DNA of 61,939 nt from Bacilli bacterium (GCA_017511945.1 JAFWHR010000007.1:1-61939); one strand, 5' to 3'; positions 1 through 61,939 are shown, numbered from the stretch's first letter. Notes: generated by a model from the sequence alone, not told the origin. Program-made: numbers and translations.

Positions 1-141
1 TATATTATAACATTTTCACACATAAAAAGCGAGTTATAATGGCCTTAATTTAGTAAAGGTAAGACTTAACTCGCAATTTAATTATAATACATTTTTTTTA
101 AAATGAAAAGACCATTGAACTAATTTGTCAACAGTCTGAAA
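1..141. repeat. Left arm of a 141-bp perfect terminal inverted repeat (right arm 61799..61939)
   Basis: Read directly: bases 1-141 are the exact reverse complement of 61799-61939, and identity stops at 142/61798. Confidence 0.95.
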
Positions 142-10267: not shown

Positions 10268-10284
10268 TATTGATTACATAAAAC

Positions 10285-10314
10285 AAACTCTGACATTTTA
10301 TTCAGAGTTTTTTC
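10285..10314 (+). terminator. Rho-independent terminator
   Basis: aaactctga/tcagagttt stem followed by tttttt. Confidence 0.7.
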
Positions 10315-10342
10315 TATATACTTTTTTTGAGGTGAATGATAT

Positions 10343-11107: not shown

Positions 11108-11108
11108 A

Positions 11109-17194: not shown

Positions 17195-19849
17195 ATGGAT
17201 GACGGTATAGAATCTTTATTATATAGTTTACCAGAACATTTAAGAGAATCAGCTAAAACTACATTAGGTATTAATGATGACAATGATAATTATAGGGATG
17301 GAGAATTATCAGATGAAGTTAATAAAAAATATGAATCAATTTTAGAAAAGCGAGATTTTTTGAATAGTATTATTGCAAACGGACTTAATTTAAATAAAGC
17401 AACAATATCACAAAAAAGTGATGAGAGATTTATTTTAACCGCACTTAATTCTAATCCGAATTCTTTAGAGTTCGCAACCAGCGTTTATCAGGATAGAGAA
17501 GATATCGTTTTTTCGTTTGTTGATAAAGATCCAAGCATTTATAAGTTTGTTAGTCCTAGATTAAAAAAGATAAAAGAATTAGTAATTCAAACATTAAAAA
17601 TTAACGGACTTGTATTAGAATATATCTCAGATGATTTAAAAAATGATTTTGATGTAGTATATGAAGCTGTTAAGAATAATGGTATGGCTTTAAAATATGC
17701 CTCGTATAATATGCGGTTAGATAGAAATATTGTTAAGAAGGCAGTAGAAGAAAATGGCACGGCAATAAGGTATGCAAACAGTAAATTAAGTAGTTGCGAT
17801 AAGGAGTTAATACTAATTGCCTTAAAGACTCCAGGTGCTAGATTATATATACATGATATAGATGACGAATTAAAAAATGATTTAGATTTTATTATTGAAT
17901 GTTGTAAAATTGAACCTAAGTTTTTTTCACATGCTTCTAATTATGTAAAAGATATATTGAGAGTGCAGTATGTTAAAAGTTATGTAGAAACATTATTTGA
18001 TGGCAAACTTATGGAAATTAGTAAATCATCTAGAGAGGATAGTTCTACTTATATTTCAATAAGAGATAAAAAAAATATAGAATATTATGAATTTGATAAA
18101 AAGAAAAATAAATTTATTACAGAAGTTAAAAAATATTATTTAAATGATAGTATAAATAGAGATTTATTATATGAGATATTAAGAAATAAAATTAATTATG
18201 AAATCGATTTATCTATTTCTAGCATTGTATATCCAATTACAGATTTTAATAAACAGTTTGATATGTTTAAAAAAAGTATATCTAATACGTATGACTTTTT
18301 TGTTAATTTATATTGTAATGAGTATAATTTACCTAATTCTGTTTTTTTAAATAATATCAATTATGATGCATTACCTGATAATTTCTATAATCAGTTAGTT
18401 ATTTTAAAAGATAATATCTGCAAAAAAAGAGATAGTTTTAAAGATAAGTTATTAGAGTTAAGAGAAAAATTTTTATTCAGTAGTGAACACAGTATATTTA
18501 TGGACTTTATCGATAGAGAAATAGGTAAATATATTGATGAATATGATGGTAGTTATGATATTGAATCTGAACTAAAAAAGTTTAATAAATTCTTGGATAA
18601 AATAGAACGAATAATGAGTGATATTAATACATTATGGAATATTTTTTATAGTATTGATAGAGGAACTATTTCTGATTTAGAATTAAAATATTATAAAGAT
18701 AATTTATCAATAGAAGGTATAAAAAGAGATTTGGAAAGTTTAGATTTAGATAATTATGAATTAAAGCTTAAACAATTAAAAAGAGAATTAAGTTTATATG
18801 ATAATGATGATAAAAGTTCAGATAATATTTATAATATATATCAATTGGTATTGGATGAATATTACAATACTATTATATTATCTGAAGATCCAGGTTTTAA
18901 TGATGATAATTTTTTTGGTGTTATTAGTGATGTGTTTTTTGATTTCTATGATTGTTATTCTAAAATATTTAGAAAAAGTGACTGTTCTGCAAAAGATATT
19001 TGTGATTTAAAAGCATATATTTATGAATTTCAAGATAGAATACATAACTATAGAAATAGTGAAAAATATGCTTTTCATATAGCTATGTTTTTGAGTTTAT
19101 ATCAAAACCATAAAAATAGTATTAATAATTTGGATTATAAAGAGGCATTGGATGAGTTATTAGAAAGCAAATATCATTTTATTTTGAATGAATACATTGA
19201 GAAATTAAGTGATTTAAGATTAGTAAATAAGAAGAATATATTAAAAGCATATACTAAAAAAATGGCTATAGCGTATAATATTTATCTATCATATAAATAT
19301 GGGAATAAAAACTTTGAAGAAGTAATAGATAAATTTAATGAGCTTGATTTTGATAATATTATTTTAATCGATGATATTAGAGTAGGATTACCTTTAAATG
19401 ATGAATTTAGTGGCAATTATTATTATACTGTTAATGATTTTTCCGAGGGTGAATCAGAAATAATATTGACTACTTCAGATGGAGAGCATGTTTGTAAATG
19501 TCTTAGTTATGATTATGAAAAAACAATACCTTTAAGAGAATTTATAGAGGATATGGAATATGCTGGTGTTTGGGATATGGGAGTTTTAGGAATAAGACAT
19601 ATTATTTATAAAAATAATGAGTATTGTCTTGCTATACAAGAAGATATTTTTGATAATAATTATTTTGAAGTATTGCCTGTTTCAAGACTAAATGATAGGC
19701 TTATGTCTTATAGTGATGACATTGAAGAAGAGTATAGGGAATATGCTTCTAAAGAAAAATTCATGAATGATTTTGAAAAAATATTAGAAGATAGATACCT
19801 TGAAAGTATTAATAAAAAAGAAAAGAAAAGGAAATTAAATTTAGGTTAA
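17195..19849 (+). CDS. Large hypothetical protein with DUF4116-like repeats
   Basis: 884 aa. N-terminal repeats of the form D.E.V..AV..NG.AL.YAS at about residues 80-200. The remainder is Asn/Tyr/Asp-rich. No signal peptide. Confidence 0.55.
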   Translation: MDDGIESLLYSLPEHLRESAKTTLGINDDNDNYRDGELSDEVNKKYESILEKRDFLNSIIANGLNLNKATISQKSDERFILTALNSNPNSLEFATSVYQDREDIVFSFVDKDPSIYKFVSPRLKKIKELVIQTLKINGLVLEYISDDLKNDFDVVYEAVKNNGMALKYASYNMRLDRNIVKKAVEENGTAIRYANSKLSSCDKELILIALKTPGARLYIHDIDDELKNDLDFIIECCKIEPKFFSHASNYVKDILRVQYVKSYVETLFDGKLMEISKSSREDSSTYISIRDKKNIEYYEFDKKKNKFITEVKKYYLNDSINRDLLYEILRNKINYEIDLSISSIVYPITDFNKQFDMFKKSISNTYDFFVNLYCNEYNLPNSVFLNNINYDALPDNFYNQLVILKDNICKKRDSFKDKLLELREKFLFSSEHSIFMDFIDREIGKYIDEYDGSYDIESELKKFNKFLDKIERIMSDINTLWNIFYSIDRGTISDLELKYYKDNLSIEGIKRDLESLDLDNYELKLKQLKRELSLYDNDDKSSDNIYNIYQLVLDEYYNTIILSEDPGFNDDNFFGVISDVFFDFYDCYSKIFRKSDCSAKDICDLKAYIYEFQDRIHNYRNSEKYAFHIAMFLSLYQNHKNSINNLDYKEALDELLESKYHFILNEYIEKLSDLRLVNKKNILKAYTKKMAIAYNIYLSYKYGNKNFEEVIDKFNELDFDNIILIDDIRVGLPLNDEFSGNYYYTVNDFSEGESEIILTTSDGEHVCKCLSYDYEKTIPLREFIEDMEYAGVWDMGVLGIRHIIYKNNEYCLAIQEDIFDNNYFEVLPVSRLNDRLMSYSDDIEEEYREYASKEKFMNDFEKILEDRYLESINKKEKKRKLNLG

Positions 19850-20823: not shown

Positions 20824-20851
20824 AACTTACTATTTATTTTGGAGGCTTGTT

Positions 20852-21592
20852 ATGGATGTTAAAAAGATAAAAAAAGAATTAATAGAACAGAAAAAATCTA
20901 AATTTAAAGGAAATATATATCATTATTCGCAGGTAAATTTTGCGTATAATTCAAATAAGATTGAAGGTAGTAAATTAACCTCGGATGAGACAGAGGAAAT
21001 TTTTGAGACAGATTCTTTTATTCCTAAGTCTGATGATGCAATAAAGTTAGATGATTTGATTGAAATGAAAAATCATTTTAGATTATTTGATTATACCTTA
21101 GATATGGTTGATGAAAAATTATCTAAAGATATAATGATTAAAATGAATAAGATTTTAAAGCGAAATACCACTGATGAGGCAAATCCAAGATATAATGTTG
21201 GTGGGTTTAAAGTTGTTCCGAATAAAGTAGGACTTATAAATGTTATAAATACATCTGAGCCTAAAAATGTAGAAAAGGATATTGATGATTTATTAAGTTG
21301 GTATGAAAAAATTAATTGTATTTCTATCGAAGATATAATTGAGTTTCATGTCAGATTTGAACGAATTCATCCATTTGGAGATGGCAATGGTAGAGTTGGT
21401 AGAATGATTATGTTTAAAGAATGCTTAAAAAATAGTATATTACCTTTTATTATTTTAGATGATGATAAACCTTATTATATGCGTGGATTAAAGGAATATG
21501 ATAATGATAAGATGTTTTTAATAGATACAATCAAAAATGAGCAAGATAGATTCGAAGAGGTTTGTAAAGAATTATTAAATTTTAATATTTAA
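20852..21592 (+). CDS. Fic family protein (probable AMPylase)
   Basis: Core motif HPFGDGNGRVGR. N-terminal SNKIEG fits the (S/T)xxxE(G/N) inhibitory motif. Confidence 0.85.
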   Translation: MDVKKIKKELIEQKKSKFKGNIYHYSQVNFAYNSNKIEGSKLTSDETEEIFETDSFIPKSDDAIKLDDLIEMKNHFRLFDYTLDMVDEKLSKDIMIKMNKILKRNTTDEANPRYNVGGFKVVPNKVGLINVINTSEPKNVEKDIDDLLSWYEKINCISIEDIIEFHVRFERIHPFGDGNGRVGRMIMFKECLKNSILPFIILDDDKPYYMRGLKEYDNDKMFLIDTIKNEQDRFEEVCKELLNFNI

Positions 21593-29016: not shown

Positions 29017-29087
29017 AAACTAGATATTTTTTACTCTAGAAAATGTATGATGTATATTGTATAATTTTTATGGTAAGGGAGAGAAAT

Positions 29088-29846
29088 ATGAAAACTAATA
29101 TTTTAATGATTGATGACAATACAAATCTAATTAACATGGTTAAAGAGTATTTTAGTGATAGTGATGTACGTATTATGTTTGAGGCTAAAGATGGTGAAGA
29201 AGGTTTAGAGGTTATTGAAAATCATAAAGATGAAATTGATCTTATAATTCTAGATTTGATAATGCCTGGCAAAGATGGGATGTACGTTTTATCAGAGCTT
29301 AAAAAAAGAGGTATTGATAAAAAGATAATTGTTGCGACAAGTTATAATGCCTCTGAAGTAATTAGAGAAGTGTCAGAGTTTGGTGTAAGTTATTATGTTT
29401 TGAAACCTTTCGATTTAAATGTTTTGGAAAAGAGAATAAAGGAAATTACAAATAAAAAAGAGGAAAATAGTTCAATTGATTTTTATTCAAGTAATTTAAA
29501 TATATCAATAACTAAAATGCTTCATGAGCTTGGTATTCCTTCGCATATTAAAGGGTATCAGTATATAAGGGAAGGAGCTAAAATAATATTTGAAAGGCCT
29601 GAGGTAATAGGAGGCATTACAAAAGAATTATATCCGGAACTTGCTAAAAAGTTTAATACAACCGTTTCTAGAGTTGAGAGGGCTATTAGACATGCTATTG
29701 AGGTTAGTTGGAATAGAGGTAATTTAGATTTTATGGAAGAATTATTTGGGTTTAGTGTAGATATTGATAGAGCTAAACCGACTAATTCTGAATTTATGGT
29801 TACAGTAGCTGATAAACTTAGACTAGATTTTCATAAAGTTAACTAG
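29088..29846 (+). CDS. spo0A: Sporulation master regulator Spo0A
   Basis: Receiver domain (DLIMPGKDG) plus the Spo0A-specific C-terminus [18 protein letters not shown]-type helix and [15 protein letters not shown]. Start at 29088 behind RBS aagggag. Confidence 0.92.
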
Positions 29847-29893: not shown

Positions 29894-30247
29894 ATGAAAA
29901 AAGGATTTACTTTAGTTGAACTTTTAGGAAGTATTGTCATTTTAGCTATAATTGCTTTAATTGCTTTTCCTACTGTTTTAAATTTACTTACTTCATCACA
30001 AAATAAAATAGATGATGGTTTAAAGAATTATGTGGAAGAAGCGGCGAGAAGTTATGTAAGTGATCACGTAAATGATTATCCTAAAGATAGTAGTGATCGT
30101 AAAATAGATGTTTTTACTCTTAAAGATGATGGATATATAAGTGAAACTAATTTTGAAAATAATAAATCTATTCAAAGTGGATGTGTAAAAGTTTCGGTGA
30201 AAAACAATAATTATGTATTTTCATTTTCAAAAGAAGAGTGTAATTAA
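29894..30247 (+). CDS. Type IV pilin / pseudopilin-like protein
   Basis: Leader MKKG|FTLVELLGSIVILAIIALIAFP. 117 aa. Confidence 0.8.
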   Translation: MKKGFTLVELLGSIVILAIIALIAFPTVLNLLTSSQNKIDDGLKNYVEEAARSYVSDHVNDYPKDSSDRKIDVFTLKDDGYISETNFENNKSIQSGCVKVSVKNNNYVFSFSKEECN

Positions 30248-30266
30248 AGAAAGAGAAGGTAATGAT

Positions 30267-32558
30267 ATGAATAAAAAAGCATTCACATTAGCAGAAATAC
30301 TTGGAGTGATAGTTATAATAGGGTTATTAGCAGTAATAATAACTCCGCTTGTAGTAAATAGATTAAAAGGAAATAGTGATATAGTATCAACTGCAAGTGA
30401 TGATTTGATATTTGCATCAGCAGACGAATATATAAAGGATAATATAGAGAATTATCCACCAGGAAAAAACTACTGCATAAAGGTTAAAGCATTAATAGAT
30501 TCAGGCTATCTTTCAGAAAAGACTAAAGATATAATTACAGGTAATCCTTTAGATAATTATTATGTATCAGCTAATATATATGGAGTTGGTAACGTAGATT
30601 ACAATCTTTATAATTCAGAATATGAATGTAATAAAGTTAAATCGCTTCCTGTAATTACATTTACAGTATTAAATGGATGGGGAGGTTCGAAAGAAGTAAA
30701 AATTAATTATCCTTCAGTAGAAAATGAAATGTATCCAGAAAAAGGATTTGAATGGAATTATAAAATTAATAATGGAAGTAAAAATGATGTAGGGGATAAT
30801 ACAAATGATTCAAAAAATCCACCTAAGCCGACAATAACATTTACAGAAAATGGTACGCTATACGCAGAAATGAAATATGGAGATAGAATTATAAGTAATA
30901 GTGTTAAAATAGACATGATAGATAAAGATGCACCTAGTGATATAAAAATAGGTTCATTTCCTACGCAAACAAATAGTGATATAACTACTAATTGTAATGA
31001 TTTGAATAATGTGACAATTACTATGAGTGATGTGGGTGGTAGTAAATTAGATAAATATATTATTACGGAAACAAGTGGCAAACCTGATAATAATTCAAAT
31101 TGGATTGATATAAGAGATGCGAGTAATATGAAAGTTAGTAAGGCAACAGTAAAATTTAAAGTAGATTACCCTTCAACTTTAGAAGAAAAAAAATATTATG
31201 TTCATGTCTTGGATACAGCAAATCAATATTCTTCACAATCTTTTAAAGCGTCGATATATCACACATTAACACTTAATTATAATTATTCTGGACGTGCAAA
31301 TGATAATCAAATTGTTAAAAATGGTGAAACGTTTAATTTACCATCCCCAAAGAGAGATGGTTATACATTTCAAGGTTGGTATAAGGATTCTAAATTTACT
31401 GAAAGTAGCAAAGTTAATACAGGCGACCGAGTATGTCTTGGTAACAATTTAACTTTGTATGCTAAATGGAAAGCAAATACATATGTTGTTAGTTTTGTTA
31501 GCAATATTAGTGGAGCAACAGGATCGACAAGTAATGTAACTTGCACATATGATCAAAATTGTACATTGACAAAAAATGGTTTCTCAAAAACAGGATATAC
31601 ATTTCAAGGTTGGGCTACTACAGCAAGTGGTAATAAAGTTTATAATAATTCACAAGTTGTAAAAAATTTAGCTACATCTGGAACTGTAAAGCTATATGGT
31701 AAGTGGACAGCAAATACATATGTCATTAGTTTTGTTGGAAACATAAGTGGAGTAACAGGAACGACAAGTAATGTAACTTGTACGTATGACCAAAACTGTA
31801 CATTGACAAAAAATGGTTTTTCAAAAAGCAATTATGTTTTTGAGGGATGGGCTACTACAGCAAGTGGCAATAAAGTTTATAATAATTCACAAGTTGTAAG
31901 AAATTTAGCTGCATCTGGAACTGTAAAATTATATGCTAAATGGATAGAGGCTTGTTCAAGTGTTAAATATGTTGATGGAACTACCTGCACTAAAAAATGT
32001 GGGGGCGGCACATATAATCAATTAGCTTATTCTACATATAATAATCAGAGATGTTCAGATAAAGATAAAACATCCGGCGGAGCATCTTGTAATAATCAGC
32101 CTTGTTATAAGGTATTAGCAACTGGTGCCCATGTGTGCCCAACAGATAGTAGTCTTGATGGATGGGATAGAGATTGTCACACTGATACACATTTTAATAC
32201 AATGGAGATAAGTAGCGTTAGTATTACAGGATCAAATCTAAAATTTCATATAAAAGTGAGGGCAAACACACAATATAACAATATTTTTAGGGGTACAATA
32301 ACTGGTAAAGTGTGTTTATCGACTGGTTCAAGTTGTACTTATACAGTAAAAAATAATATAGATATGTCTAATTGGTATAATTTGAGTGGAGTTGTTATAA
32401 ATAGTACATTAGAATATGATCTCAGTGATAATAATGTATCAAAAGGAAAATACTATGTGATATTTAAGTCAACTGGTTCTGATGGTGGACCTTATGCAAG
32501 TTTTACCCAAAATCCTTCGAAAAGTGGAAACAAGCAAATTTTTGAAGTACTATATTGA
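30267..32558 (+). CDS. Giant pilin-like protein: prepilin N-terminus, three Listeria-Bacteroides (Flg_new) repeats, a TSP1-like Cys module and a C-terminal domain
   Basis: MNKKA|FTLAEILGVIVIIGLL leader. Repeats ending LTLYAKW, VKLYGKW and VKLYAKW, each with GYTFQGW/YVFEGW. CTKKCGGGTY...CNNQPC. Confidence 0.8.
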   Translation: MNKKAFTLAEILGVIVIIGLLAVIITPLVVNRLKGNSDIVSTASDDLIFASADEYIKDNIENYPPGKNYCIKVKALIDSGYLSEKTKDIITGNPLDNYYVSANIYGVGNVDYNLYNSEYECNKVKSLPVITFTVLNGWGGSKEVKINYPSVENEMYPEKGFEWNYKINNGSKNDVGDNTNDSKNPPKPTITFTENGTLYAEMKYGDRIISNSVKIDMIDKDAPSDIKIGSFPTQTNSDITTNCNDLNNVTITMSDVGGSKLDKYIITETSGKPDNNSNWIDIRDASNMKVSKATVKFKVDYPSTLEEKKYYVHVLDTANQYSSQSFKASIYHTLTLNYNYSGRANDNQIVKNGETFNLPSPKRDGYTFQGWYKDSKFTESSKVNTGDRVCLGNNLTLYAKWKANTYVVSFVSNISGATGSTSNVTCTYDQNCTLTKNGFSKTGYTFQGWATTASGNKVYNNSQVVKNLATSGTVKLYGKWTANTYVISFVGNISGVTGTTSNVTCTYDQNCTLTKNGFSKSNYVFEGWATTASGNKVYNNSQVVRNLAASGTVKLYAKWIEACSSVKYVDGTTCTKKCGGGTYNQLAYSTYNNQRCSDKDKTSGGASCNNQPCYKVLATGAHVCPTDSSLDGWDRDCHTDTHFNTMEISSVSITGSNLKFHIKVRANTQYNNIFRGTITGKVCLSTGSSCTYTVKNNIDMSNWYNLSGVVINSTLEYDLSDNNVSKGKYYVIFKSTGSDGGPYASFTQNPSKSGNKQIFEVLY
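31473..31946 (+). repeat. Two tandem 237-bp (79-codon) near-identical repeats inside the giant pilin gene
   Basis: The unit starting gcaaatacatatgt recurs at 31473 and 31710 with only scattered substitutions. Confidence 0.85.
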
Positions 32559-54483: not shown

Positions 54484-54784
54484 GTATACTTCAACTCCTT
54501 TTATATTTTAGCACATTTCTAATTAAAAAAAACATTTTTTATAAATTCGTTTCTATCTGCAGTATATTATATATTTGCTGCAGATTTATGTCAAATCTAC
54601 CTGAATATTTATTATTAAATTTCAAATCATCATTATGTTTTATTATTTTGTTATTTTAACTGAATATAAGTTATAATATTTTTATTCACATTCAGAAGAT
54701 AATAATAAGCATTAGTTCTATTTTTTTTAGTATTATATTAATTGAAATATTTGTGTAAAGACATTTTTATATTAGACATTTTTT

Positions 54785-55427
54785 TTGCTAAAATATGTTA
54801 TAATGTAATTGTATTAAAATGATACGAGGTGAATAGAATGAGTGAAATACAAAAAATAAACTTAAACGATATTGATTTTAAATGGGATAAGGTATCTACG
54901 ACTGCGGCAGGAGCAGCAAGTGGTAAAGGCTTTTTAAATGAAAGTAACATTATAAAGGATGCTTGGGCTGATGAGTTAGAAATGGAAAAAGTTGATGATG
55001 CTTACTTGCTTTCTCAAGATGGAACACCTATGGGATTCATAGATTCTAAAACGGCTGAAGATTATATGAATTCAGAAAAAGCAGCTCACGAACAGTCTAA
55101 TAAGGATGTTGATAATGGCAATAATAATATTGAAAGAAAACCTTTAACAGATGCATTAAAAGAAAAAGGCGTACTTTCAGATCCAGCTGAAAAGAAAGTA
55201 GAGATAACTGAAACAATAAAAAATAGTTTAAATGTAGCTGAAACAAATTCTAATCAAATTGAAAATACTAAGAATAATTCAAATAAACCTTTAATAGATG
55301 CGTTAAGGGAAAAAGGTTTACTTTTAGATCCAAATAAAGAAAAAGTAGATATAACTGAAAATTTAATAAAAAACTTAAAAATAGATGATAATGAATCAAA
55401 AATATCACCAGTGGTCGATGATTCAAC
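54785..55427 (+). repeat. Copy 1 of a 643-bp direct repeat (promoter, RBS and about 197 codons); copy 2 is at 57473..58115
   Basis: Constant offset of 2688 bp with no indels and only scattered substitutions. Includes an extended -10 TGTTATAAT at 54796-54804. Confidence 0.9.
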
Positions 55428-55971
55428 AGCAAATGATAAAATTGTACAAAAAGAATTAACTAAAGTTCAGGTTGACAAAATGCTAGAAATAGCTGAAAGT
55501 CAGTGTGGAGTAAGATATAATAGTATGAATTATGGCCCAGCAGAAGAAGGGGGCGATGGTTTTGGATGTGCAATGTTAGTTTCTTATATATATAATAATA
55601 TACTATTTAACGGAGTAAGAGGAGATTCTATGGATACACCTGGTTTTTATGGGAGTACATATGAATATTGGGGTAATGTTACAAGAGATGGTTATGATCC
55701 TCACAATAAGGGGTTTATAGAAGTGCCCGCAGAAGAGGCTCAGCCAGGAGATGTTGTAGCTTATACAGAAGGATATGATCCTTATGAAAGTGCCCAGTCT
55801 TGTGGGCATGTAGCATTATATATAGGCGATGGAGAAGTAATAGGAGCCAACGGAACTGGTAGTGGTGATGCTGCGGTTGGCCAAGTTGAAGTAACTAGTG
55901 TTGAAGCACAAGCTTATGGTAGAGATGCTCATTATTTACATTATGTTGGCGTCGACGATGGTAACAAGTAA
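54838..55971 (+). CDS. Modular protein: shared N-terminal module plus a C-terminal NlpC/P60 (CHAP-like) peptidase domain
   Basis: GFGCAMLVSYIY (Cys) and CGHVALYIGDGEVIG (His). No signal peptide seen. Confidence 0.75.
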   Translation: MSEIQKINLNDIDFKWDKVSTTAAGAASGKGFLNESNIIKDAWADELEMEKVDDAYLLSQDGTPMGFIDSKTAEDYMNSEKAAHEQSNKDVDNGNNNIERKPLTDALKEKGVLSDPAEKKVEITETIKNSLNVAETNSNQIENTKNNSNKPLIDALREKGLLLDPNKEKVDITENLIKNLKIDDNESKISPVVDDSTANDKIVQKELTKVQVDKMLEIAESQCGVRYNSMNYGPAEEGGDGFGCAMLVSYIYNNILFNGVRGDSMDTPGFYGSTYEYWGNVTRDGYDPHNKGFIEVPAEEAQPGDVVAYTEGYDPYESAQSCGHVALYIGDGEVIGANGTGSGDAAVGQVEVTSVEAQAYGRDAHYLHYVGVDDGNK

Positions 55972-56010
55972 TATGTTATTTTGTTAAAAACTTAAATAAG
56001 GGTGAAATAT

Positions 56011-57366
56011 ATGAAAGAGTATAGACAAGTGTTAAATTTTACTTATAAAAACCAAGAATATGTTATGTATTTAGATAACGATAACAAAAGATTTTTTTTA
56101 AAAGTTATTGATGGTCAATTTGCATATTTAACAGATAAAGAATTTGCAGAACTTACCATATTTTTTGCTTCTAATCCGAAAATTATGAAAGTAGTAGGGA
56201 AAAAAAAGATTAAACTTATTCCTTCTATAGTTTCTGGAGGTATTACAACTATTCTGTCTTTTTCAGTTTTAACAGGTTGTTTTAAATCTTCTGAGATTCA
56301 AGTTGATAATTTGTTTCCGTCAAGAGCTACTAGTGAAATTGTTACAGACGTAGAAGATTTTAAGAATATTATGTCTCTTTCTGATTCTCATACTTTAGAT
56401 AGTGAAAATGATACATATGAATATAAAGATAATACTCTGTATATTTATGATAAAGATTTTTTAGACTTAGTTATGGAAAAGGAAAATATCACTTATGACA
56501 TGCTTTGTAGACAAATAGATAGGAATAATTGTATTCCTCCTGAGTTTAAGAGTGTATTATACGATTACTGTCTAGCTTTAACTACTAAGCATCCAAATGT
56601 TGATTTAAGAGTTTTTTATAACAATTTAAAGACATTAGAGGTTGAAACATGTACAAGTGAGGAAATAGAGGTTAAAACAGGAATATCTGGTTCTTATGGG
56701 TGTTATGATAGTAGTAAAAATGAAATATATGTTATTAAAAATTATGATTATAATAATGATTTGTGGGCTCATCAAGTAATATTTCATGAACTTACTCATT
56801 GTGCAATAATTGGAAATTATGAAATAGATGGACTTAAAGTTAAAGTTCAGCCAGAGGGACCCAAATTTAATAACGAAATTACCTCTGAAGCACTTACGAC
56901 TTTGTTTACTGTTAGTTTATTTGATTATGAAGAAAATGGATTGGCGTATCAACTTCAAAGTAATTATCATAAAATAATGCTTGATTGTTTAGGCGATAAT
57001 TATAGTTTAGATGATTATTTTAATCACAGTTTAAGTTATTTTGAAAATGCATTGAACAAATATAATGGTAATGATGATTCTGCAGTTATATTAGAATTAA
57101 TTCAAACGCAATTCAAAGATTATCATAGTACCTTGATAAATGTGTCTAAAGAAGAGTATTATCCAATAATTGGGTATGTTTGTGATATGTATTATAAAAG
57201 CCATATCAGTCCTTATATGGAATATGATGAGATGATTGATGTAGCAGAAACATTATATAGTAAAGTAAGTCGATATGTTCCTAATGAGTATAAAATAGAA
57301 AAAAAACAGTTTTATGATCATTTAGATAATTATTTACAGTATGTAAATAAAGATAGAACGAGATAA
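56011..57366 (+). CDS. Single-pass membrane protein with an HExxH metallopeptidase-like ectodomain
   Basis: TM LIPSIVSGGITTILSFSVLTGCF and motif VIFHELTHC. Confidence 0.6.
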   Translation: MKEYRQVLNFTYKNQEYVMYLDNDNKRFFLKVIDGQFAYLTDKEFAELTIFFASNPKIMKVVGKKKIKLIPSIVSGGITTILSFSVLTGCFKSSEIQVDNLFPSRATSEIVTDVEDFKNIMSLSDSHTLDSENDTYEYKDNTLYIYDKDFLDLVMEKENITYDMLCRQIDRNNCIPPEFKSVLYDYCLALTTKHPNVDLRVFYNNLKTLEVETCTSEEIEVKTGISGSYGCYDSSKNEIYVIKNYDYNNDLWAHQVIFHELTHCAIIGNYEIDGLKVKVQPEGPKFNNEITSEALTTLFTVSLFDYEENGLAYQLQSNYHKIMLDCLGDNYSLDDYFNHSLSYFENALNKYNGNDDSAVILELIQTQFKDYHSTLINVSKEEYYPIIGYVCDMYYKSHISPYMEYDEMIDVAETLYSKVSRYVPNEYKIEKKQFYDHLDNYLQYVNKDRTR

Positions 57367-57472
57367 TTATATTATTACAAATACTTTACTTTTAAAAACA
57401 ATGTATATGTTAATATATAACTGATAATGATTATTAAAAATAGATAGTGTCATTTATCGAATTAAATAATAC

Positions 57473-58115
57473 TTGATAAAATATGTTATAATGTAATTGT
57501 ATTAAAATGGTATGGAGGGAAGATAATGAGTGAAATACAAAAAATAAACTTAAACGATATTGATTTTAAATGGGATAAGGTATCTACGACTGCGGCAGGA
57601 GCAGCAAGTGGTAAAGGATTTTTAAATGAAAGTAACATTATAAAGGATGCTTGGGCTGATGAGTTAGAATTGGAAAAAGTTGATGATGCTTACTTACTTT
57701 CCCAAGATGGAACACCTATGGGATTCATAGATTCTAAAACGGCCGAAGATTATATGAATTCAGAAAAAGCAGCTCACAAACAGTCTAATAAGGCTGTTGA
57801 TAATGGCAATAATAATATTGAAAAAAAACCTTTAACAGATGCATTAAAAGAAAAAGGCGTACTTTCAGATCCAGCTGAAAAGAAAGCGGAGATAGCTGAA
57901 ACAATAAACAATAATTTAAAAGTAGATGAAACAAATTCTAATCAAATTGAAAATACTAAGAATAATTTAAATAAATCTTTAATAGATGCGTTAAGGGAAA
58001 AAGGTTTACTTTTAGATCCAAATAAAGAAAAAGTAGATATAACTGAAAATTTAATGAAAAACTTAAAAATAGATGATAATGAATCAAAAATATCACCAGT
58101 GGTTGATGATTCAAC
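57473..58115 (+). repeat. Copy 2 of the 643-bp direct repeat
   Basis: See copy 1. The -10 TATAAT is at 57487-57492. Confidence 0.9.
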
Positions 58116-58821
58116 TATAAATATACCTTCGATAGAAAATGTTGATGTTAAGACAACACGTTATGCTGATTCTACAGTTTGGTATGCTGTTATCCCTAAA
58201 GAATTAAAACCAAAATTGGCTATAGCTAATGATAATTATGACGAATTAACTGTAGAAGCTCCTAGTGAAATTGCTAAAAGAAAAAACGCTAAAATAGCTA
58301 TTAATTTTGGACTTACTGGGGATCCAGCTGGACTTATGTATGCAGATGGAAAGTTCATAGGGTCAGTTAATGATTGTGATCAAACCTTATATATGGACCA
58401 AGATGGGACATTAAATTGTATTAGAAATGAGGAAGAAGCAGATCTTGCACAAAAAATAATAGATATTAATCCTGTATGGGCTTCAAAAGGATTTTATGCA
58501 ATTGCTGAAGATGGCAATTATGTTGATGAAAATTATATAGATCCTAGTCTATCACGTAATAAAGAACCAAGAACTTTTATAGGACAAGATTATGATGGCA
58601 ACTATATTATTGGTGTTTGTGATGGGCGAAGCGAAAATGAGGCTGGTATGACTTTGAAAGAAGTGTACGATTTTGTTAATACAGAAGTTACTGATAATCT
58701 TCGATTCTTATTTAATGGAGATGGTGGAGGTTCAAGTGCTATTATGTATGACGGACAGAAACTTAATCCAGATATTGACGGAAGCGAAAGAGAACGTCCA
58801 GACTTAATTTATTGGAATTAA
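57526..58821 (+). CDS. Modular protein: shared N-terminal module plus a C-terminal phosphodiester glycosidase (NAGPA/DUF2233) domain
   Basis: EPRTFIGQDYDGNYIIGVCDGRSENEAGMTLKEVYDFV and FNGDGGGSSAIMYDG. Confidence 0.75.
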   Translation: MSEIQKINLNDIDFKWDKVSTTAAGAASGKGFLNESNIIKDAWADELELEKVDDAYLLSQDGTPMGFIDSKTAEDYMNSEKAAHKQSNKAVDNGNNNIEKKPLTDALKEKGVLSDPAEKKAEIAETINNNLKVDETNSNQIENTKNNLNKSLIDALREKGLLLDPNKEKVDITENLMKNLKIDDNESKISPVVDDSTINIPSIENVDVKTTRYADSTVWYAVIPKELKPKLAIANDNYDELTVEAPSEIAKRKNAKIAINFGLTGDPAGLMYADGKFIGSVNDCDQTLYMDQDGTLNCIRNEEEADLAQKIIDINPVWASKGFYAIAEDGNYVDENYIDPSLSRNKEPRTFIGQDYDGNYIIGVCDGRSENEAGMTLKEVYDFVNTEVTDNLRFLFNGDGGGSSAIMYDGQKLNPDIDGSERERPDLIYWN

Positions 58822-58869
58822 AAAAATTTTTGATACAATTAATCTTGTGATACATAAATAATTTATTTA

Positions 58870-58903
58870 AAATAAACCAAAAAAGGACCTTTAAAAGTCC
58901 TTT
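58870..58903 (+). repeat. Copy 1 of a 34-bp direct repeat containing a terminator hairpin (copy 2 at 61768..61801)
   Basis: aaataaaccaaaaaaggacctttaaaagtccttt is identical at both sites. Confidence 0.9.
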
Positions 58904-58908
58904 TAAAA

Positions 58909-59091
58909 TTAGTTTCCAAAAGCTCTAGTTACGATTATGATTACAAGTAAGATAAACAAAACTAAAATAATAGATTCACCATATCAAGAGCCATATCCTC
59001 CGCCGTAGCCACCGCAGCAAGGATTACAGCCATACCCTGAACGACCCTTATAAGTCCAAAATGAAACGCCGAAAATGTTCTTATATTTCAA
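58909..59091 (-). pseudogene. YjcZ-like small sporulation protein gene interrupted by an in-frame TGA
   Basis: Minus-strand reading gives (TTG) KYKNIFGVSFWTYKGRSGYGCNPCCGGYGGGYGS*YGESIILVLFILLVIIIVTRAFGN*. The internal stop is at 58984-58986. Confidence 0.5.
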
Positions 59092-59348
59092 GGTAAATTA
59101 AGGTTTTTTCAAAAAATGAAAAACAGGAAAACTCGAATTTTTTATAAAAAACATAATTTTTTATTAAATTTTTTACATAGCTGTCTTATTAATTTAAGGT
59201 AGTATTTTTATGATGGAAAGAGAGGCAAAAAAAAGAAAATAAATTGTTAAAAATAACAATTAAATTTTTCTACTATATGTTTCCAAACTGAAGAAATATT
59301 GTTATAATAATGTAAAGAAAAAATATTGATGAAAGGAGTTAATTATTT

Positions 59349-60341
59349 ATGATAGAAGATGAGTTTAGTAAAATAATTAGGCTTATTGAAAAAAGAAAGA
59401 AAAATGCTTATTTTAAGGTTAACGAAGAAATGATTTTGTTGTATTTAGATGTTGGAAAGTTTTTGTTTGAATTGCAGCAAAAAAGTAAATATGGTGATAA
59501 AATAACAATAAAAGCATCAGAATTTATGAAAAAGAATTATCCCACTATTAAAGGTTTTACTAAAAGGAACATTGAACGAATGATTCAATTTTATAAGACA
59601 TATAAAGATGATGAAATTGCGACACCACTGGTGACGCAATTGTCTTGGACTAATAATTTACTTATTATTAGTGGGTCTAAATCAATAGAAGAAAGGCACT
59701 TCTATTTAAAACTAGCAATTAAAAATAACTATTCAAAAAGAGAGTTAGATAGACAAATATCTTCTGCCTATTATGAACGTTATATGCTGTCAGGTGGAAA
59801 ACAATTACCAACAATTAAAAAAACTATTGATGAAAATGATTATCCAAACACAAGAATTTTAGATACATATAGTTTAGAATTTTTGGACTTACCAAACGTT
59901 TTTTCAGAAGGTGATTTTAAAAAAGCAATTATTAGTAATATTAAAGACTTCATTTTAGAAGTTGGCAAGGATTTTACTTTTATAGGTGATGAATATAGAG
60001 TGCAGGTAGGTAATCATGATTTTTTCATTGATTTATTGTTTTACAATAGAGAATTATCATGTTTAGCAGCATTTGAGTTAAAATTAGGTGAATTTAAAGC
60101 AGAATATCTTGGAAAAATGAATTTATATCTTGAAGCACTAGATCGAAATGTCAAAAAAGAAAAGGAAAATCCAAGTGTCGGTGTTATACTATGTAGTTCC
60201 AAAGATAATGATGTAGTTGAATATTCTATTAGTAAAAATATGTCACAAACTATGATTTCTGAATATAAATTAAAATTAATTGATAAAAAACTATTGGAAA
60301 ATAAACTAAAAGAGGTTAAAAGTTTAATAGAGACGAAATAA
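59349..60341 (+). CDS. PDDEXK nuclease, DUF1016 (E. coli YhcG-like) family
   Basis: 330 aa. N-terminal helical region with QLSWTNN, and C-terminal DLLFYNREL...AFELKLGEF. Confidence 0.75.
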   Translation: MIEDEFSKIIRLIEKRKKNAYFKVNEEMILLYLDVGKFLFELQQKSKYGDKITIKASEFMKKNYPTIKGFTKRNIERMIQFYKTYKDDEIATPLVTQLSWTNNLLIISGSKSIEERHFYLKLAIKNNYSKRELDRQISSAYYERYMLSGGKQLPTIKKTIDENDYPNTRILDTYSLEFLDLPNVFSEGDFKKAIISNIKDFILEVGKDFTFIGDEYRVQVGNHDFFIDLLFYNRELSCLAAFELKLGEFKAEYLGKMNLYLEALDRNVKKEKENPSVGVILCSSKDNDVVEYSISKNMSQTMISEYKLKLIDKKLLENKLKEVKSLIETK

Positions 60342-60386
60342 TTGTTAAAGATTTAAATATTAGTATGCAAAAGGAAGAAGTTTGAT

Positions 60387-61523
60387 ATGATGAAGAAGAA
60401 CTCAAATTTAATTTTAAAGACATTAAAAAATAGCTTATTAAGTGGAATAAATTTCGATGATAAAATATTAGATTTTTTAGAGATAAATAATGTATTTTCA
60501 GATAAAAGTAAAAAATGTAAGCTATGCAATAAAAACTTTAGCGGAAATAATAAAGCTTATGGCAACTCATGTCTTAAAAATTTGTATGACAAAAGTGGTA
60601 TGAGCTACTTTAAAGAAATAGAAGATAAGGAACTATTCTTGTATACTGCTATTGCTGTTAAATCAAACCAAGATTTTATTAATAAAGAGCAAGTATATTA
60701 TTTATGTGAATCATATTTATCAAAATTATATATTGAAAAAATTAATAATACCAAGAAACTTCAAAACGAATTAAATAAATGTATAGAAAACAATAAAAAA
60801 CCAATCATGAAATTAAATACTGCATATAGAATTAGTAAAATAGTAAAAAGAAATAAAAAGATATTAGATGTTAATAATATTAATAAAATAATTGATGAAA
60901 ATTTATTAAAATTCTTTAAAACATATTTTAGTATAAACAAAATAACTAATCCACGATTTTATGAGGTATATTATTATATGCAGTTCATTCTTTGGGAGGG
61001 TGTTGTGAAAGGTGGAGAATATAAAAAACTGAAATTATCTTCGAAATGTTTATCTCATTCATTAAGTGTTTTGAATTCGAAACCAAAGGATATTAAGTTT
61101 AATGATAAGGATAAATATGTTATTGACTTGATTAAGGGAGAAGATGGTTTTAAAAACAAAATAAAAGAGTTAATAGATAAATATTATAAAAAAGATAAAA
61201 TAATATTTAATGACTCAACACCTAAAGATTCTGAAGAATTATATTATAGTTTTGAAAATGACGATCTATTTTATTCGCTTCATTCTGTCAAAATTAACTT
61301 TGACGGATACAAAAAAGATAATAAATGGCATCTTAATATTGAACTCACAGATACTTATGATTTTACTGAAATACTATCTAATGATAAATATAAAGATAGT
61401 AAGAGAAAATATTTAACAAAAGGAAACGTTTTGAATGACTTTGCAGCTATTTCTAGTCAGTATGGTGTTATTAAACCATATAAAATAATTATTGATTTTA
61501 AATGGAGTGATTTTGATGTATAA
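60387..61523 (+). CDS. Hypothetical protein (CxxC near the N-terminus; no family recognised)
   Basis: 378 aa, Lys/Asn-rich. The stop overlaps the start of the next ORF (ATGTATAA). Confidence 0.55.
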   Translation: MMKKNSNLILKTLKNSLLSGINFDDKILDFLEINNVFSDKSKKCKLCNKNFSGNNKAYGNSCLKNLYDKSGMSYFKEIEDKELFLYTAIAVKSNQDFINKEQVYYLCESYLSKLYIEKINNTKKLQNELNKCIENNKKPIMKLNTAYRISKIVKRNKKILDVNNINKIIDENLLKFFKTYFSINKITNPRFYEVYYYMQFILWEGVVKGGEYKKLKLSSKCLSHSLSVLNSKPKDIKFNDKDKYVIDLIKGEDGFKNKIKELIDKYYKKDKIIFNDSTPKDSEELYYSFENDDLFYSLHSVKINFDGYKKDNKWHLNIELTDTYDFTEILSNDKYKDSKRKYLTKGNVLNDFAAISSQYGVIKPYKIIIDFKWSDFDV

Positions 61524-61752
61524 AAAAATAGATAACATGATATTATGGTTAAAAAGATTTTTAAATACTGATTTTAAAAAAATATTTCTTTTGATTATTA
61601 TCAGTATATTGATAATTATATCTATATACCTTTTTGGATTCTTTATGGCAATTGGTCTTATAAAAGAAGGAGAGGAGAGAAGAAATGAAATAGATAAACT
61701 ATACAAAAAAGGAATATGTAATTATGAAAAACCTTGTGATTATCCATATTAA
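61516..61752 (+). CDS. Small single-pass membrane protein
   Basis: 78 aa from MYKKIDN with TM IFLLIIISILIIISIYLFGFFMAIGLI. Translationally coupled to the upstream ORF. Confidence 0.5.
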   Translation: MYKKIDNMILWLKRFLNTDFKKIFLLIIISILIIISIYLFGFFMAIGLIKEGEERRNEIDKLYKKGICNYEKPCDYPY

Positions 61753-61767
61753 ATCTATATAAAATTT

Positions 61768-61801
61768 AAATAAACCAAAAAAGGACCTTTAAAAGTCCTT
61801 T
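61768..61801 (+). repeat. Copy 2 of the 34-bp direct repeat / terminator hairpin
   Basis: Identical to 58870-58903 and directly abuts the terminal inverted repeat. Confidence 0.9.
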
Positions 61802-61939
61802 CAGACTGTTGACAAATTAGTTCAATGGTCTTTTCATTTTAAAAAAAATGTATTATAATTAAATTGCGAGTTAAGTCTTACCTTTACTAAATTAAGGCCA
61901 TTATAACTCGCTTTTTATGTGTGAAAATGTTATAATATA
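61799..61939. repeat. Right arm of the 141-bp perfect terminal inverted repeat
   Basis: Exact reverse complement of 1-141. Confidence 0.95.

Follow-up and report, generated by a model that had tools for sequence, protein, structure and literature searches.

Leaderless effectors of type VII secretion offer one close comparison for the locus described here. In the LXG/WXG100 effectors of the T7SSb (TelC, EsaD and YxiD among them), a constant N-terminus is joined to interchangeable enzymatic heads that act as nucleases, NADases or pore formers, no Sec signal is present, paralogues recombine, and the genes are tied to essC, esaB and WXG genes. Known T7SS substrates of the WXG100 and LXG kinds are helical hairpins. 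Wall hydrolases also enter T7SS biology by another door, since the T7SSb of S. aureus recruits the CHAP hydrolase EssH via the N-terminal domain of that protein; EssH consists of a Sec signal peptide, the N-terminal domain and the CHAP domain, and is a single housekeeping component (PMC13059805). On the membrane side, the actinobacterial T7SSa has mycosin (MycP), a C-terminally anchored, single-pass subtilisin whose protease-like domain is extracytoplasmic and whose gene adjoins that of the EccC/EssC ATPase. The T7SS subtypes c to j combine TsxC (EssC), TsxB (YukD-like), WXG100 and lineage-specific membrane components (PMC11217815), with an HExxH membrane component in none of them according to Garrett, Higginson and Palmer (2024), whose RefSeq survey was drawn without the uncultured Bacilli considered here (PMC11217815). 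Finally, modular Gram-positive autolysins and endolysins pair a catalytic head with wall-binding repeats, and in them NlpC/P60, CHAP, GH25 and further heads are shuffled while the non-catalytic module is shared.

The locus lies in a 61,939-nt stretch of DNA from an uncultured gut member of the Bacilli (hereafter the window) and encodes two hydrolases, p1 and p3, with a membrane protein, p2, between them. We regard it, at about even confidence, as a set of tagged, leaderless wall hydrolases tied to their membrane partner, a T7SS-associated zincin, and presumably exported by a T7SS. Its features, in order of position, are as follows.

54785..55427, plus strand: repeat copy 1 (promoter, RBS and p1 codons 1-197), 95.8% identical to copy 2, with abrupt ends
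54790..54810, plus strand: 21-mer AAAATATGTTATAATGTAATT with a TGnTATAAT extended -10, found identically at 57478-57498
54838..55101, plus strand: p1 residues 1-88, the signature MSEIQKINLND and an orphan alpha/beta domain, conserved in P0003-P0005 and the L022 proteins
55102..55428, plus strand: p1 residues 89-197, a predicted disordered linker of ~110 aa with 2 x 49-aa repeat (pLDDT <50)
55429..55971, plus strand: p1 head, a predicted NlpC/P60 (CHAP-like) papain-fold wall peptidase (PF00877, PDB 3h41)
56011..57366, plus strand: p2, a predicted 451-aa bitopic membrane protein with a single TM segment and HELTH
57473..58115, plus strand: repeat copy 2 (promoter, RBS and p3 codons 1-197), whose coding part trades sequence with that of copy 1 in other strains
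57526..58116, plus strand: p3 residues 1-197, the N-terminal unit as in p1 (13 aa differences)
58117..58821, plus strand: p3 head, a predicted NAGPA-type phosphodiester glycosidase (PF09992, PDB 6pky)
58881..58904, no strand assigned: palindromic, G+C-rich hairpin with T runs on either side, a terminator-like end of the unit, seen in the sequence

Like the LXG/WXG100 effectors, p1 and p3 lack a Sec signal and recombine, and they share the tie to essC, esaB and WXG genes, which here runs via p2 and one locus, L022. In contrast, their common unit matches neither LXG nor WXG and has a predicted beta-rich structure rather than that of a helical hairpin, their heads are wall hydrolases, and the window has no adjacent immunity gene, small helical partner genes or nearby essC. 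EssH is similar in being a papain-fold hydrolase, with a non-catalytic N-terminal domain needed for association with the T7SS membrane complex and with later protease control (PMC13059805), but p1 and p3 are leaderless, multiple and variable between strains and species, and their N-terminal sequence is unrelated. Mycosin provides an analogy for p2, which is instead N-terminally anchored, carries an HExxH...E pattern and has no detectable homology to MycP, its roles as protease and in secretion being putative. The loci of p2 relatives resemble the T7SS subtypes c to j in their gene content. Unlike that of the modular autolysins, the common module here is N-terminal, orphan and leaderless, bears a conserved signature at its extreme N-terminus and shows strict linkage to p2.

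Front ends and catalytic heads of p1 and p3

The repeat had been described from the sequence as 643 bp long with a constant offset of 2688 and no indels, covering an extended -10, the RBS and about 197 codons and stopping at VVDDST, and this description is accurate throughout. The copies differ by 27 mismatches and no indels, and within ~10 nt of either edge identity is at background (~5-8 matches per 20 nt). The extended -10, TGTTATAAT, lies at 54796-54804 and 57484-57492; the surrounding 21-mer is also found directly 5' of p2 in a sister species (L088), and the module genes of L001, L003 and L022 have TGnTATAAT-like elements ahead of them. Judged by consensus, the p1 and p3 genes would start with the same sigma-A-type extended -10 promoter. 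Translation is placed at ATG 54838 for p1, in preference to a GTG at 54829 that was considered and rejected, and at ATG 57526 for p3, and the common part ends at VVDDST (55411-55428 and 58099-58116).

The near identity of the two copies appears to be maintained rather than inherited from a recent event. Over 17 kb, strain L004 differs from the window at 17 positions, all inside one tract (54930-55288) in which its copy 1 carries copy-2 alleles. Strain L084 has private alleles common to both copies, P0118 has a type-1 module on a NAGPA head, and P0002 has a type-2 module on an NlpC head. This mosaic exchange across strains argues for gene conversion and indicates that the front ends are probably kept nearly identical by an ongoing process confined to the coding part, the alleles being those of short-read metagenome assemblies, in which a 643-bp repeat can be mis-phased. 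The 96% identity was also considered as a sign of recent gene assembly, a reading that we rejected because it reflects conversion between two resident genes.

The shared N-terminal unit opens with a 12-residue signature (M-x-x-I-K-K-[IV]-x-[IV]), which is followed by an orphan alpha/beta domain of ~75 aa and then by a disordered linker. AlphaFold2 (AF2) gives a pLDDT of 60-82 to p1 residues 8-84 and models the module as a three-stranded sheet with short helices, at low confidence (pLDDT 54). The linker does contain the internal duplication reported earlier, although the size given, ~30 aa, applies to its conserved core: the period is 49 aa (147 nt), and 55122-55241 and 55269-55388 are 76% identical in nucleotides. 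This linker is not conserved in P0003-P0005. Neither p1 nor p3 has a hydrophobic N-terminus or TM segment (maximum 19-residue Kyte-Doolittle scores of 1.16 and 0.67), as the sequence-only reading had held for the shared module.

That reading had also considered the module unlike LXG, WXG, Rhs or any carrier it recognised. Searches of Pfam, NCBIfam, PHROG, PDB sequences, PDB folds and BFVD folds bear this out, returning no match for the unit, whether to those families or to known wall-binding or lysin families, whose presence would have told against a new delivery module; Pfam likewise showed no similarity to spore-targeting domains (LysM, SafA and SpoVID regions). The best PDB fold match, a Listeria putative autolysin (5jqc), is non-significant (E=0.3). 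The module is rare, with only 5 clusters among 1.84 billion representatives searched exhaustively with phmmer. Its makeup is composite: the signature is short, the 75-aa domain is optional and in some cases duplicated, and the disordered linker evolves fast. The signature is present even on relatives that lack the rest of the module, and a regular-expression search for it in ORFs of at least 150 aa from 32 low-GC sequences matched tagged hydrolase family proteins only. Such retention where the 75-aa domain is absent is more in keeping with a recognition signal than with a binding fold.

Beyond VVDDST the two proteins diverge into the heads that had been proposed for them. Residues 241-341 of p1 match PF00877 NlpC/P60 (30.3 bits against a cut-off of 23, E=4e-7), with 3h41 as a relative in the PDB (E=2.4e-4). 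Candidate catalytic residues are Cys244 (GFGCAMLV, 55558-55581) and His324 (CGHVALYIG, 55801-55827), which fit the CHAP/NlpC type; in the phmmer alignment with 3h41, the canonical DCSGF lies opposite MDTPGF. The p3 head matches PF09992 NAGPA (63.1 bits against a cut-off of 25, E=5e-17) over profile positions 3-166 of 169, includes the DGGGSS motif (NGDGGGSS at aa 397, 58714-58737) and has 6pky as its PDB relative (E=5e-5); P0003 is orthologue-like, with 48% identity across the head. The C-terminal domains had been judged by eye to be richer in G/C codons than their surroundings, which would fit recent acquisition. Their overall G+C is indeed higher, up to 0.46, but the increase falls entirely on codon positions 1 and 2 and is thus a matter of amino-acid composition. 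GC3 is 0.183 for the NlpC/P60 head and 0.154 for the NAGPA head, against 0.178 +/- 0.023 for 48 window genes, so codon usage gives no sign of recent foreign origin.

The membrane protein p2 and its neighbours

The middle gene conforms to its initial description as a single-pass membrane protein with an HExxH ectodomain. Its only TM segment spans aa 69-91 (56215-56283; Kyte-Doolittle score 1.77) and separates a small cytoplasmic beta domain (aa 1-55) from a predicted extracytoplasmic, helical, zincin-like domain, in which HELTH (aa 259-263, 56785-56799) is followed by Glu293. H259, E260, H263 and E293 are invariant in 39 p2-family sequences that are 25-85% identical to the window p2, a conservation pattern that makes p2 zincin-like and, putatively, protease-like. 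For p2 itself there is no match over cut-off in Pfam or NCBIfam, and searching the PDB with a profile gave no match either. Sub-threshold MPTase-PolyVal matches occur in 8 of the 39, and Foldseek with the p2 model gives a best E of 0.23, which is not significant, with anthrax lethal factor at E ~0.5-3.

Comparison with relatives reveals that the tag is not bound to one fixed pairing of N- and C-termini, just as a constant module with swapped heads would predict. At least five head types occur on it: NAGPA (P0001 and P0003), NlpC/P60 (P0002), CHAP-like, GH25+NlpC/P60 and Peptidase_C39_2 (P0004), with P0005 carrying an unknown head. Locus L022 holds an array of tagged hydrolases that includes a CHAP/NlpC-headed protein, a 1442-aa protein with two tandem modules, GH25 and NlpC/P60, and signature-only proteins with NlpC/P60-like (no Pfam match) and C39_2 heads. 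A p2 homologue is always adjacent to the tagged hydrolase genes of relatives. It lies 14 bp 5' of P0004 in L002 (54% identity), adjoins the C39_2 genes of L005 and L006, and is embedded in the array of L022. This neighbourhood evidence makes the HExxH membrane protein a conserved partner of the hydrolases, not a bystander. The reverse does not hold: in sister species L088 and L089 the same 21-nt promoter is followed by p2 (85% aa identity), and both p1/p3-type hydrolase genes are missing; the hydrolases behave as a cassette. A conserved 220-aa gene lies downstream of the C39_2 genes of L002 and L022 only.

The p2 family itself is larger (>100 clusters), and its commonest neighbour is essC. An EssC-like gene of 1518 aa lies beside p2 in 17 fetched loci and an EssC fragment in an eighteenth (L054); by our own count over these 17 + 1 loci, p2 homologues directly adjoin bona fide essC in ~13 lineages. 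The two genes are arranged divergently or co-directionally, followed by an EsaB-like gene and two WXG-like genes. In L007, EssC scores 939.6 bits on TIGR03928 (cut-off 778.4) and is accompanied by an 84-aa EsaB-like protein and by WXG100 matches that are weak (E=0.003-0.006) with the WxG motif visible. In the relatives, not in the window, an EssC equivalog is thus clustered with a YukD/EsaB-like protein and WXG100-like proteins; no EssB, EsaA or EssA was detected by name in that T7SSb-like locus. As far as gene order can tell, the placement of p2-family genes beside essC, esaB and WXG100-like genes is conserved in the T7SSb-like loci of uncultured low-G+C Bacilli.

In the p2 tree, the hydrolase-adjacent proteins form one clade nested among EssC-adjacent ones. 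No tagged hydrolase is within reach in the EssC-adjacent p2 loci, and no essC, esaB or WXG gene is found in the window or within 10 kb downstream in strain L084. The hydrolases are linked to T7SS only via p2 and via one locus, L022, in which the first module gene has an EsaB homologue directly 5' of it. With p2 relatives next to essC, the earlier idea of a delivery module gains a concrete candidate machine.

Proposed export of the tagged hydrolases and other explanations

Should the N-terminal unit serve as a tag for recruitment or export, it would bring the leaderless enzymes to a p2-containing, type VII-like apparatus and they would be exported by the EssC machine. By analogy with mycosin, p2 might then dock the exported enzymes, use its outer zincin domain to cleave them within the long flexible linker, or both, and the freed heads could cut cross-links in peptidoglycan and phosphodiester-linked glycopolymers of the wall. 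The predicted beta-rich character of the module speaks against a T7SS tag, and tandem duplication within one protein is more typical of a binding domain.

Modularity is common among wall hydrolases, and p1 and p3 might be ordinary autolysins whose unit is a new wall-binding or surface-anchoring domain and whose genes arose by local partial duplication, with p2 a separate, co-located wall-remodelling metallopeptidase and export non-classical or by lysis instead of by a T7SS. The tandem 75-aa domains of the 1442-aa protein, arranged as binding repeats often are, the lack of T7SS genes in the window, the absence of immunity genes and the non-significant resemblance to the Listeria autolysin all fit such a scheme, yet we consider it rather unlikely. 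No signal peptide is present in any of the more than ten family members, though all their heads act outside the membrane; the unit resembles no known wall-binding family; the extreme N-terminal signature is conserved even without the domain; and linkage is strict to p2, whose family has essC as its commonest neighbour. Leaderless wall hydrolases are also typical of mother-cell expression in B. subtilis, and the CwlC, CwlH, CwlJ and SleL-type enzymes of Bacillus are a model for reading p1 and p3 as sporulation enzymes, the unit targeting the forespore surface, cortex or coat, or serving mother-cell lysis, and p2 residing in the outer forespore membrane. The organism may well sporulate, given that the window encodes Spo0A (29043-29846) and SpoIIGA (10343-11107), the latter with a likely sigma-E gene after it. 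Even so, a sporulation role seems improbable: upstream of the genes lies a textbook extended -10 of the sigma-A type, conserved across species, not a sigma-E or sigma-K -10; p2 relatives are found in T7SS loci, not sporulation loci; a syntenic sister species without both hydrolases is unexpected for core spore enzymes; and the unit bears no likeness to LysM, SafA or SpoVID regions.

That the hydrolases are degenerate phage lysins or tail-associated lysins, with the shared region a phage structural adaptor, is very improbable. It would account for the matches of the NlpC/P60 head to PHROG 329 'minor tail protein' (E=3.5e-11) and of the NAGPA head to PHROG 14029, but PHROG matches are restricted to the catalytic heads, neither locus nor module matches phage DNA or protein, no relative is on a viral contig, BFVD yields no fold match, and the locus lies among housekeeping genes (def, ABC-F, SMC) whose synteny is conserved in a sister species. 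With no prophage setting and no whole-protein phage similarity, membership among phage endolysins or tail lysins was rejected.

For the tagged hydrolases as T7SS-linked enzymes, we lean slightly towards an accessory, competitive role, attack on neighbouring Gram-positive walls, over an EssH-like opening of the cell's own wall for the secretion apparatus, because there are many heads, they are found in arrays, and sister species differ in whether they have them. Possibly this locus of an uncultured gut bacterium points to an undescribed export route. Of the features of polymorphic toxins (Zhang, Aravind et al.), the conserved N-terminus with varied C-termini is present, and the suggestion of a polymorphic effector family stands to that extent. 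No cognate immunity gene lies immediately 3' of p1 or p3, p1 being followed by p2 and p3 by the terminator, so the term in its toxin-immunity sense is unproven. The terminator-like hairpin is also the first part of a ~365-bp element with further copies elsewhere.

A repeated front end on two different heads

The sequence-only reading described a gap-free direct repeat covering a promoter, a ribosome-binding site and some 197 codons, and this description holds up well. The 643-bp repeat (54785-55427 and 57473-58115) has a constant offset of 2688 bp, no indels and 27 mismatches (95.8% identity), seven of which fall in the RBS region, and resemblance between the copies stops abruptly, with identity at background level some 10 nt past either end. 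It ends with codons 1-197 of two genes, p1 and p3, which flank a third, p2:

54796-54804 and 57484-57492: extended -10 element TGTTATAAT, within the 21-nt stretch AAAATATGTTATAATGTAATT present in each repeat copy
54838-55971: p1, 377 aa, NlpC/P60-headed hydrolase
56011-57366: p2, 451 aa, membrane protein encoded between p1 and p3
57526-58821: p3, 431 aa, NAGPA-headed hydrolase

Homologues place the start of p1 at ATG 54838 and not at GTG 54829. The shared parts of p1 and p3 differ at 13 of 197 residues, and divergence is complete past VVDDST, the point at which identity had been said to stop in both copies. An internal duplication in the shared unit is also real, though its period is 49 aa and not the roughly 30 aa first proposed. 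TGnTATAAT-like elements and similar 5' leaders lie upstream of genes with the same front end in three loci (L001, L003 and L022); an Rfam search of the window found no RNA family.

Pfam assigns the two proteins the different wall-active heads that had been expected, NlpC/P60 on p1 (PF00877, 30.3 bits against a cut-off of 23; PDB relative 3h41) and NAGPA on p3 (PF09992, 63.1 bits against a cut-off of 25; PDB relative 6pky). Neither a hydrophobic N-terminus nor a transmembrane (TM) segment was found in p1 or p3, in agreement with the earlier view that the shared module lacks both signal peptide and TM helix. The heads had further been judged richer in G/C codons, which would have fitted recent domain acquisition. 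Overall G+C is indeed higher in both heads than in their surroundings, but the excess sits at the first two codon positions and stems from a composition rich in Gly, Ala, Asp and Glu. Because GC3 (0.183 for NlpC/P60 and 0.154 for NAGPA) matches that of 48 window genes (0.178 +/- 0.023), codon usage gives no sign of a recent foreign origin of the heads, and acquisition as judged from G+C was rejected.

The N-terminal unit is unlike known carriers, as had been suspected: it had no match in Pfam, NCBIfam, PHROGs, PDB sequences, PDB folds or BFVD folds. An AlphaFold model from a five-sequence alignment (without the L022 copies) shows, with moderate confidence, a small alpha/beta domain at residues 8-84, ordered as a short strand, short helices, a three-stranded sheet and a helix, with residues 85-197 disordered; at a mean pLDDT of 54 the model gave no structural identification. 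When phmmer was run exhaustively against 1.84 billion representative proteins, only five clusters came back, two of them the window's own p1 and p3. The others join the module to a NAGPA head (P0003, whose linker also has an internal repeat), a Peptidase_C39_2 head (P0004) and an unassigned low-complexity tail (P0005). Conservation among the five is confined to the first ~85 residues, and the linkers are unrelated. Estimates of the module's rarity rest on this search and on the fetched loci, word-index homology searches, a tool insensitive for this family, having returned nothing or only a 93-aa fragment. Module patterns scanned in GTDB genomes, JGI metagenomes and IMG/VR found no relative.

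A search for the same N-terminus on other C-termini had been suggested, and relatives do carry such combinations. In addition to the heads named above, metagenome locus L022 encodes a 483-aa protein with the module on a CHAP/NlpC-like head and a 1442-aa protein with two tandem 75-aa domains followed by GH25 and NlpC/P60. Three more L022 proteins have the extreme N-terminal signature without the 75-aa domain: one of 299 aa, NlpC/P60-like by inspection with no Pfam match, one of 262 aa that is C39_2 by Pfam, and one of 394 aa that is C39-like by tblastn, its ORF truncated where the locus stops. L005 likewise has a signature-only C39_2 protein. Together with the five clusters, these architectures indicate a composite module, in which the N-terminal signature is universal, the domain optional and repeatable, and the linker fast-evolving. 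When every ORF of 150 aa or more in 32 low-GC sequences was scanned with the signature, written M-x(1-5)-[IVT]-x-[KRE]-[IV]-x-[IV]-[DNKSGY], only proteins of the tagged family matched; since the pattern was built from the family itself, this result measures specificity, not discovery. At the level of sequence, the family is established as one of leaderless, modular, predicted wall hydrolases that have an orphan, recombining front end in common.

Probable gene conversion in the repeat and cassette-like behaviour of the genes

Three further assemblies of the window's species are 99.5-99.9% identical to the window. All 17 differences between L004 and the window over 17 kb lie inside one tract, 54930-55288, where copy 1 of L004 carries the window's copy-2 alleles between flanking markers that are still those of copy 1. 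The two copies of L084 are identical across the coding part and have two private alleles in common. Among protein variants, P0118 joins a type-1 module to a NAGPA head, P0002 joins a type-2 module to an NlpC head, and a hybrid module is found on both heads (P0116 and P0119). Eight sites of the upstream/RBS region (54788-54836) are nevertheless copy-specific in every assembly. This pattern points to repeated gene conversion confined to the coding module, read from assemblies of a kind (short-read metagenome) that can mis-phase a repeat. The window copies differ at 7 synonymous and 13 non-synonymous sites (dN/dS 0.44).

Both hydrolase genes are missing from a sister species with conserved gene order (L088 and L089; 87-88% nucleotide identity), where p2 is retained at 85% amino acid identity, directly 3' of the same 21-nt promoter. 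The sister species has 109 bp where the window has 54600-55991, and 518 bp with an unrelated 151-aa gene where the window has 57378-58867. This solitary p2, with the TGnTATAAT elements and leaders of L001, L003 and L022, suggests that the hydrolase genes behave as cassettes around a conserved p2, promoter, leader and tag moving together.

An intergenic element of ~365 bp, beginning with a palindromic terminator hairpin, recurs in copies 83-88% identical:

58867-59231 and 61765-61801: element copies in the window
15753-16124 and 20827-21085: element copies in L084
11049-11400: element copy in L088
11092-11274, minus strand: Gly/Cys-rich 60-aa peptide ORF inside the L088 element
58984-59091, minus strand: 35-aa remnant of that ORF in the window
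59349-61752: block of a YhcG/DUF1016 PDDEXK nuclease (330 aa), a 378-aa protein and an 86-aa membrane peptide

The element lies after p3, after the YhcG block and further downstream in L084; it brackets gene blocks that differ between the two species and behaves like a cassette boundary. The YhcG block, which is absent from this position in the sister species, sits between two copies and has a further TGTTATAAT upstream (59300-59308); its 378-aa protein has no family match. The L088 peptide, MKYKFFFGVSF...CNPCCGGYGGGYGSGYGASIILVLFILLVIIIG, has a hydrophobic C-terminal tail and presumably resembles the tiny YjcZ-like membrane peptides of Bacillus.

The membrane partner p2 and type VII loci

The gene between p1 and p3 encodes the HExxH membrane protein described earlier, with a single TM segment at aa 69-91 and the HELTH motif at residues 259-263. 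It has no match in Pfam or NCBIfam. The p2 family comprises at least 108 clusters, some from MAGs labelled 'Bacilli bacterium' or 'Tenericutes bacterium'; H259, E260, H263 and E293 are invariant in 39 members, eight of which give sub-threshold zincin-family matches. A good AlphaFold model (pLDDT 81.8), with a four-stranded cytoplasmic N-domain plus helix, the TM segment and a helical outer domain, has no significant neighbour in the PDB. Homology of the N-domain to the module was rejected (hhalign probability 0.1%), as was a plasmid origin of p2. An anti-sigma (RsgI-like) role, raised because p2 joins a small beta N-domain to a TM segment, was likewise rejected: there is no Pfam match, and a sigma-factor neighbour is absent from all loci.

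A p2 homologue adjoins every tagged hydrolase gene that has enough flanking DNA. In L002 it is 54% identical and separated by a 14-bp gap, and further cases occur in L005, L006, L014 and L022; the linkage of the predicted hydrolases to p2 is strict. In 17 loci, drawn from 73 metagenome loci fetched for their p2 homologues and others added by exact look-ups, the immediate neighbour of p2 is an FtsK/SpoIIIE protein of ~1520 aa, and in L054 it is an EssC fragment, making about 13 lineages by our count. L007 encodes an EssC equivalog, which scores 939.6 bits on TIGR03928 where the cut-off is 778.4. The genes for p2 and its large neighbour point apart in some loci and the same way in others; next come an 84-aa EsaB/YukD-like protein and two WXG-like ones, of which one contains WVGQSAEQF. 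In L022 the first tagged hydrolase has an EsaB homologue immediately upstream, and p2 follows 7.9 kb downstream within that array. A neighbour-joining tree places the hydrolase-adjacent p2 proteins (window, L088, L002, L005, L014 and L022) in one clade nested inside the EssC-adjacent ones. As judged from gene order, the p2 family is linked to essC loci. Within the 62-kb window, HMMs for EssC, EsaB and WXG-like proteins had no match, and 10 kb further downstream in strain L084 holds nothing relevant to type VII secretion (T7SS).

Two variants of the p2 context deserve mention. L025 has two tandem p2 paralogues (8610-9986 and 10001-11428; 34% identity) upstream of essC, the first seemingly without a TM segment, which suggests that some T7SS loci may have both soluble and membrane forms of the zincin-like protein. 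Some 35 near-identical human-gut loci (L029-L079) of a higher-G+C organism that is common in such samples encode a shorter homologue (37% identity, limited to residues 62-441) in an unrelated, metabolic neighbourhood without essC; the zincin-like domain therefore occurs outside T7SS and hydrolase contexts too.

Explanations and neighbouring genes

The idea of a constant delivery module with swapped heads stands in part, shorn of its G/C-codon argument and sharpened by the p2-essC link. On evidence that is comparative throughout, we propose that the front end would recruit the enzymes for export through a type VII-like apparatus that contains p2, that p2 may dock them or process them within the flexible linker, and that the heads would then cleave peptidoglycan and phosphodiester-linked wall polymers. 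The bacteria themselves are walled, as follows from a PASTA-domain protein (peptidoglycan-related) in the window and, judged from sequences only, MurD- and FemX-like genes next to p2 in relatives. Mycosin, a membrane protease encoded beside EccC, is a precedent for p2, whose family is encoded next to essC. The T7SSb substrates characterised so far are, to our knowledge, all helical proteins of the WXG100 or LXG type, and we know of no T7SS membrane core outside Actinobacteria that includes a protease. With mycosin, the closest functional precedent is EssH, a CHAP hydrolase that the S. aureus T7SSb recruits through the enzyme's N-terminal domain (PMC13059805); EssH is Sec-dependent, whereas p1 and p3 are leaderless. 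None of the T7SS subtypes b-j of Garrett et al. 2024 has a p2-like component (PMC11217815).

Ordinary autolysins with a new wall-binding module would explain why the 75-aa domain is duplicated in tandem and why the window has no T7SS genes; such enzymes would not be expected to lack signal peptides throughout the family, to carry a free-standing N-terminal signature or to have a partner linked to essC, and we consider this account unlikely. A role in sporulation has some local appeal, since the window encodes core regulators:

10343-11107: SpoIIGA (Peptidase_U4)
11109-11795: 228-aa ORF directly after SpoIIGA, candidate sigma-E
29043-29846: Spo0A (receiver domain and Spo0A_C)

With these three genes, this 27% G+C lineage appears to retain core sporulation regulators. 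Yet the promoter is conserved and sigma-A-like, the sister species lacks both hydrolase genes and the relatives of p2 are located in T7SS loci, which makes sporulation enzymes quite improbable. Phage remnants, with neither phage context nor phage match, are scarcely credible, and a phage origin was rejected.

Among roles for the enzymes, we favour an accessory, competitive one over housekeeping, because the heads are many and variable and the sister species lacks them; the absence of immunity genes argues against it. We rate the system as a putative family of modular, exported effectors or hydrolases that has a new tag and, associated with T7SS, a new membrane component. It is possible, and offered tentatively, that uncultured low-G+C gut Bacilli have an undescribed T7SS subtype, with the zincin-like p2 in its membrane core as a functional analogue of mycosin, and new non-helical substrates, marked by M-x-x-I-K-K-[IV]-x-[IV] and a small beta-rich domain, that would turn swappable wall-degrading heads on neighbours without dedicated immunity genes. 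Export by a p2-containing T7SS would mean a new targeting signal for type VII secretion, a new core or accessory component and wall hydrolases as a new effector class, in abundant rumen and gut Bacilli that are uncultured and whose interactions are little known. Whatever the mechanism, the locus offers a clean natural case of gene conversion homogenising a promoter-proximal coding module of two differently headed genes, and defines two orphan families worth describing, that of the tag domain and that of the p2 zincin.

Two further genes of the window were noted:

17195-19849: 884-aa DUF4116-repeat protein (E=1e-47)
30213-32558: 781-aa protein with Listeria-Bacteroides repeat domains (PF09479)

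A 293-aa protein with a weak DUF4116 match directly follows a tagged hydrolase in L022 (3695-4576), and DUF4116 proteins could possibly be tied to the hydrolase system, for example as immunity or partner proteins. In two distant loci (L002 9150-9818 and L022 12158-12820; 42% identity) the tagged Peptidase_C39_2 gene is followed by one for a conserved cytoplasmic protein of 220 aa that matches no family, a candidate for an immunity or chaperone role tied to the C39_2 head. Window positions 1-138 are the exact reverse complement of 61802-61939, and L084 continues differently past 61801, with the 365-bp element; the terminal match could be a genuine inverted repeat or could have arisen in assembly at the contig ends. 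The 781-aa protein has a weak prepilin-type N-terminal methylation motif and is predicted to be a large pilin-like surface protein.
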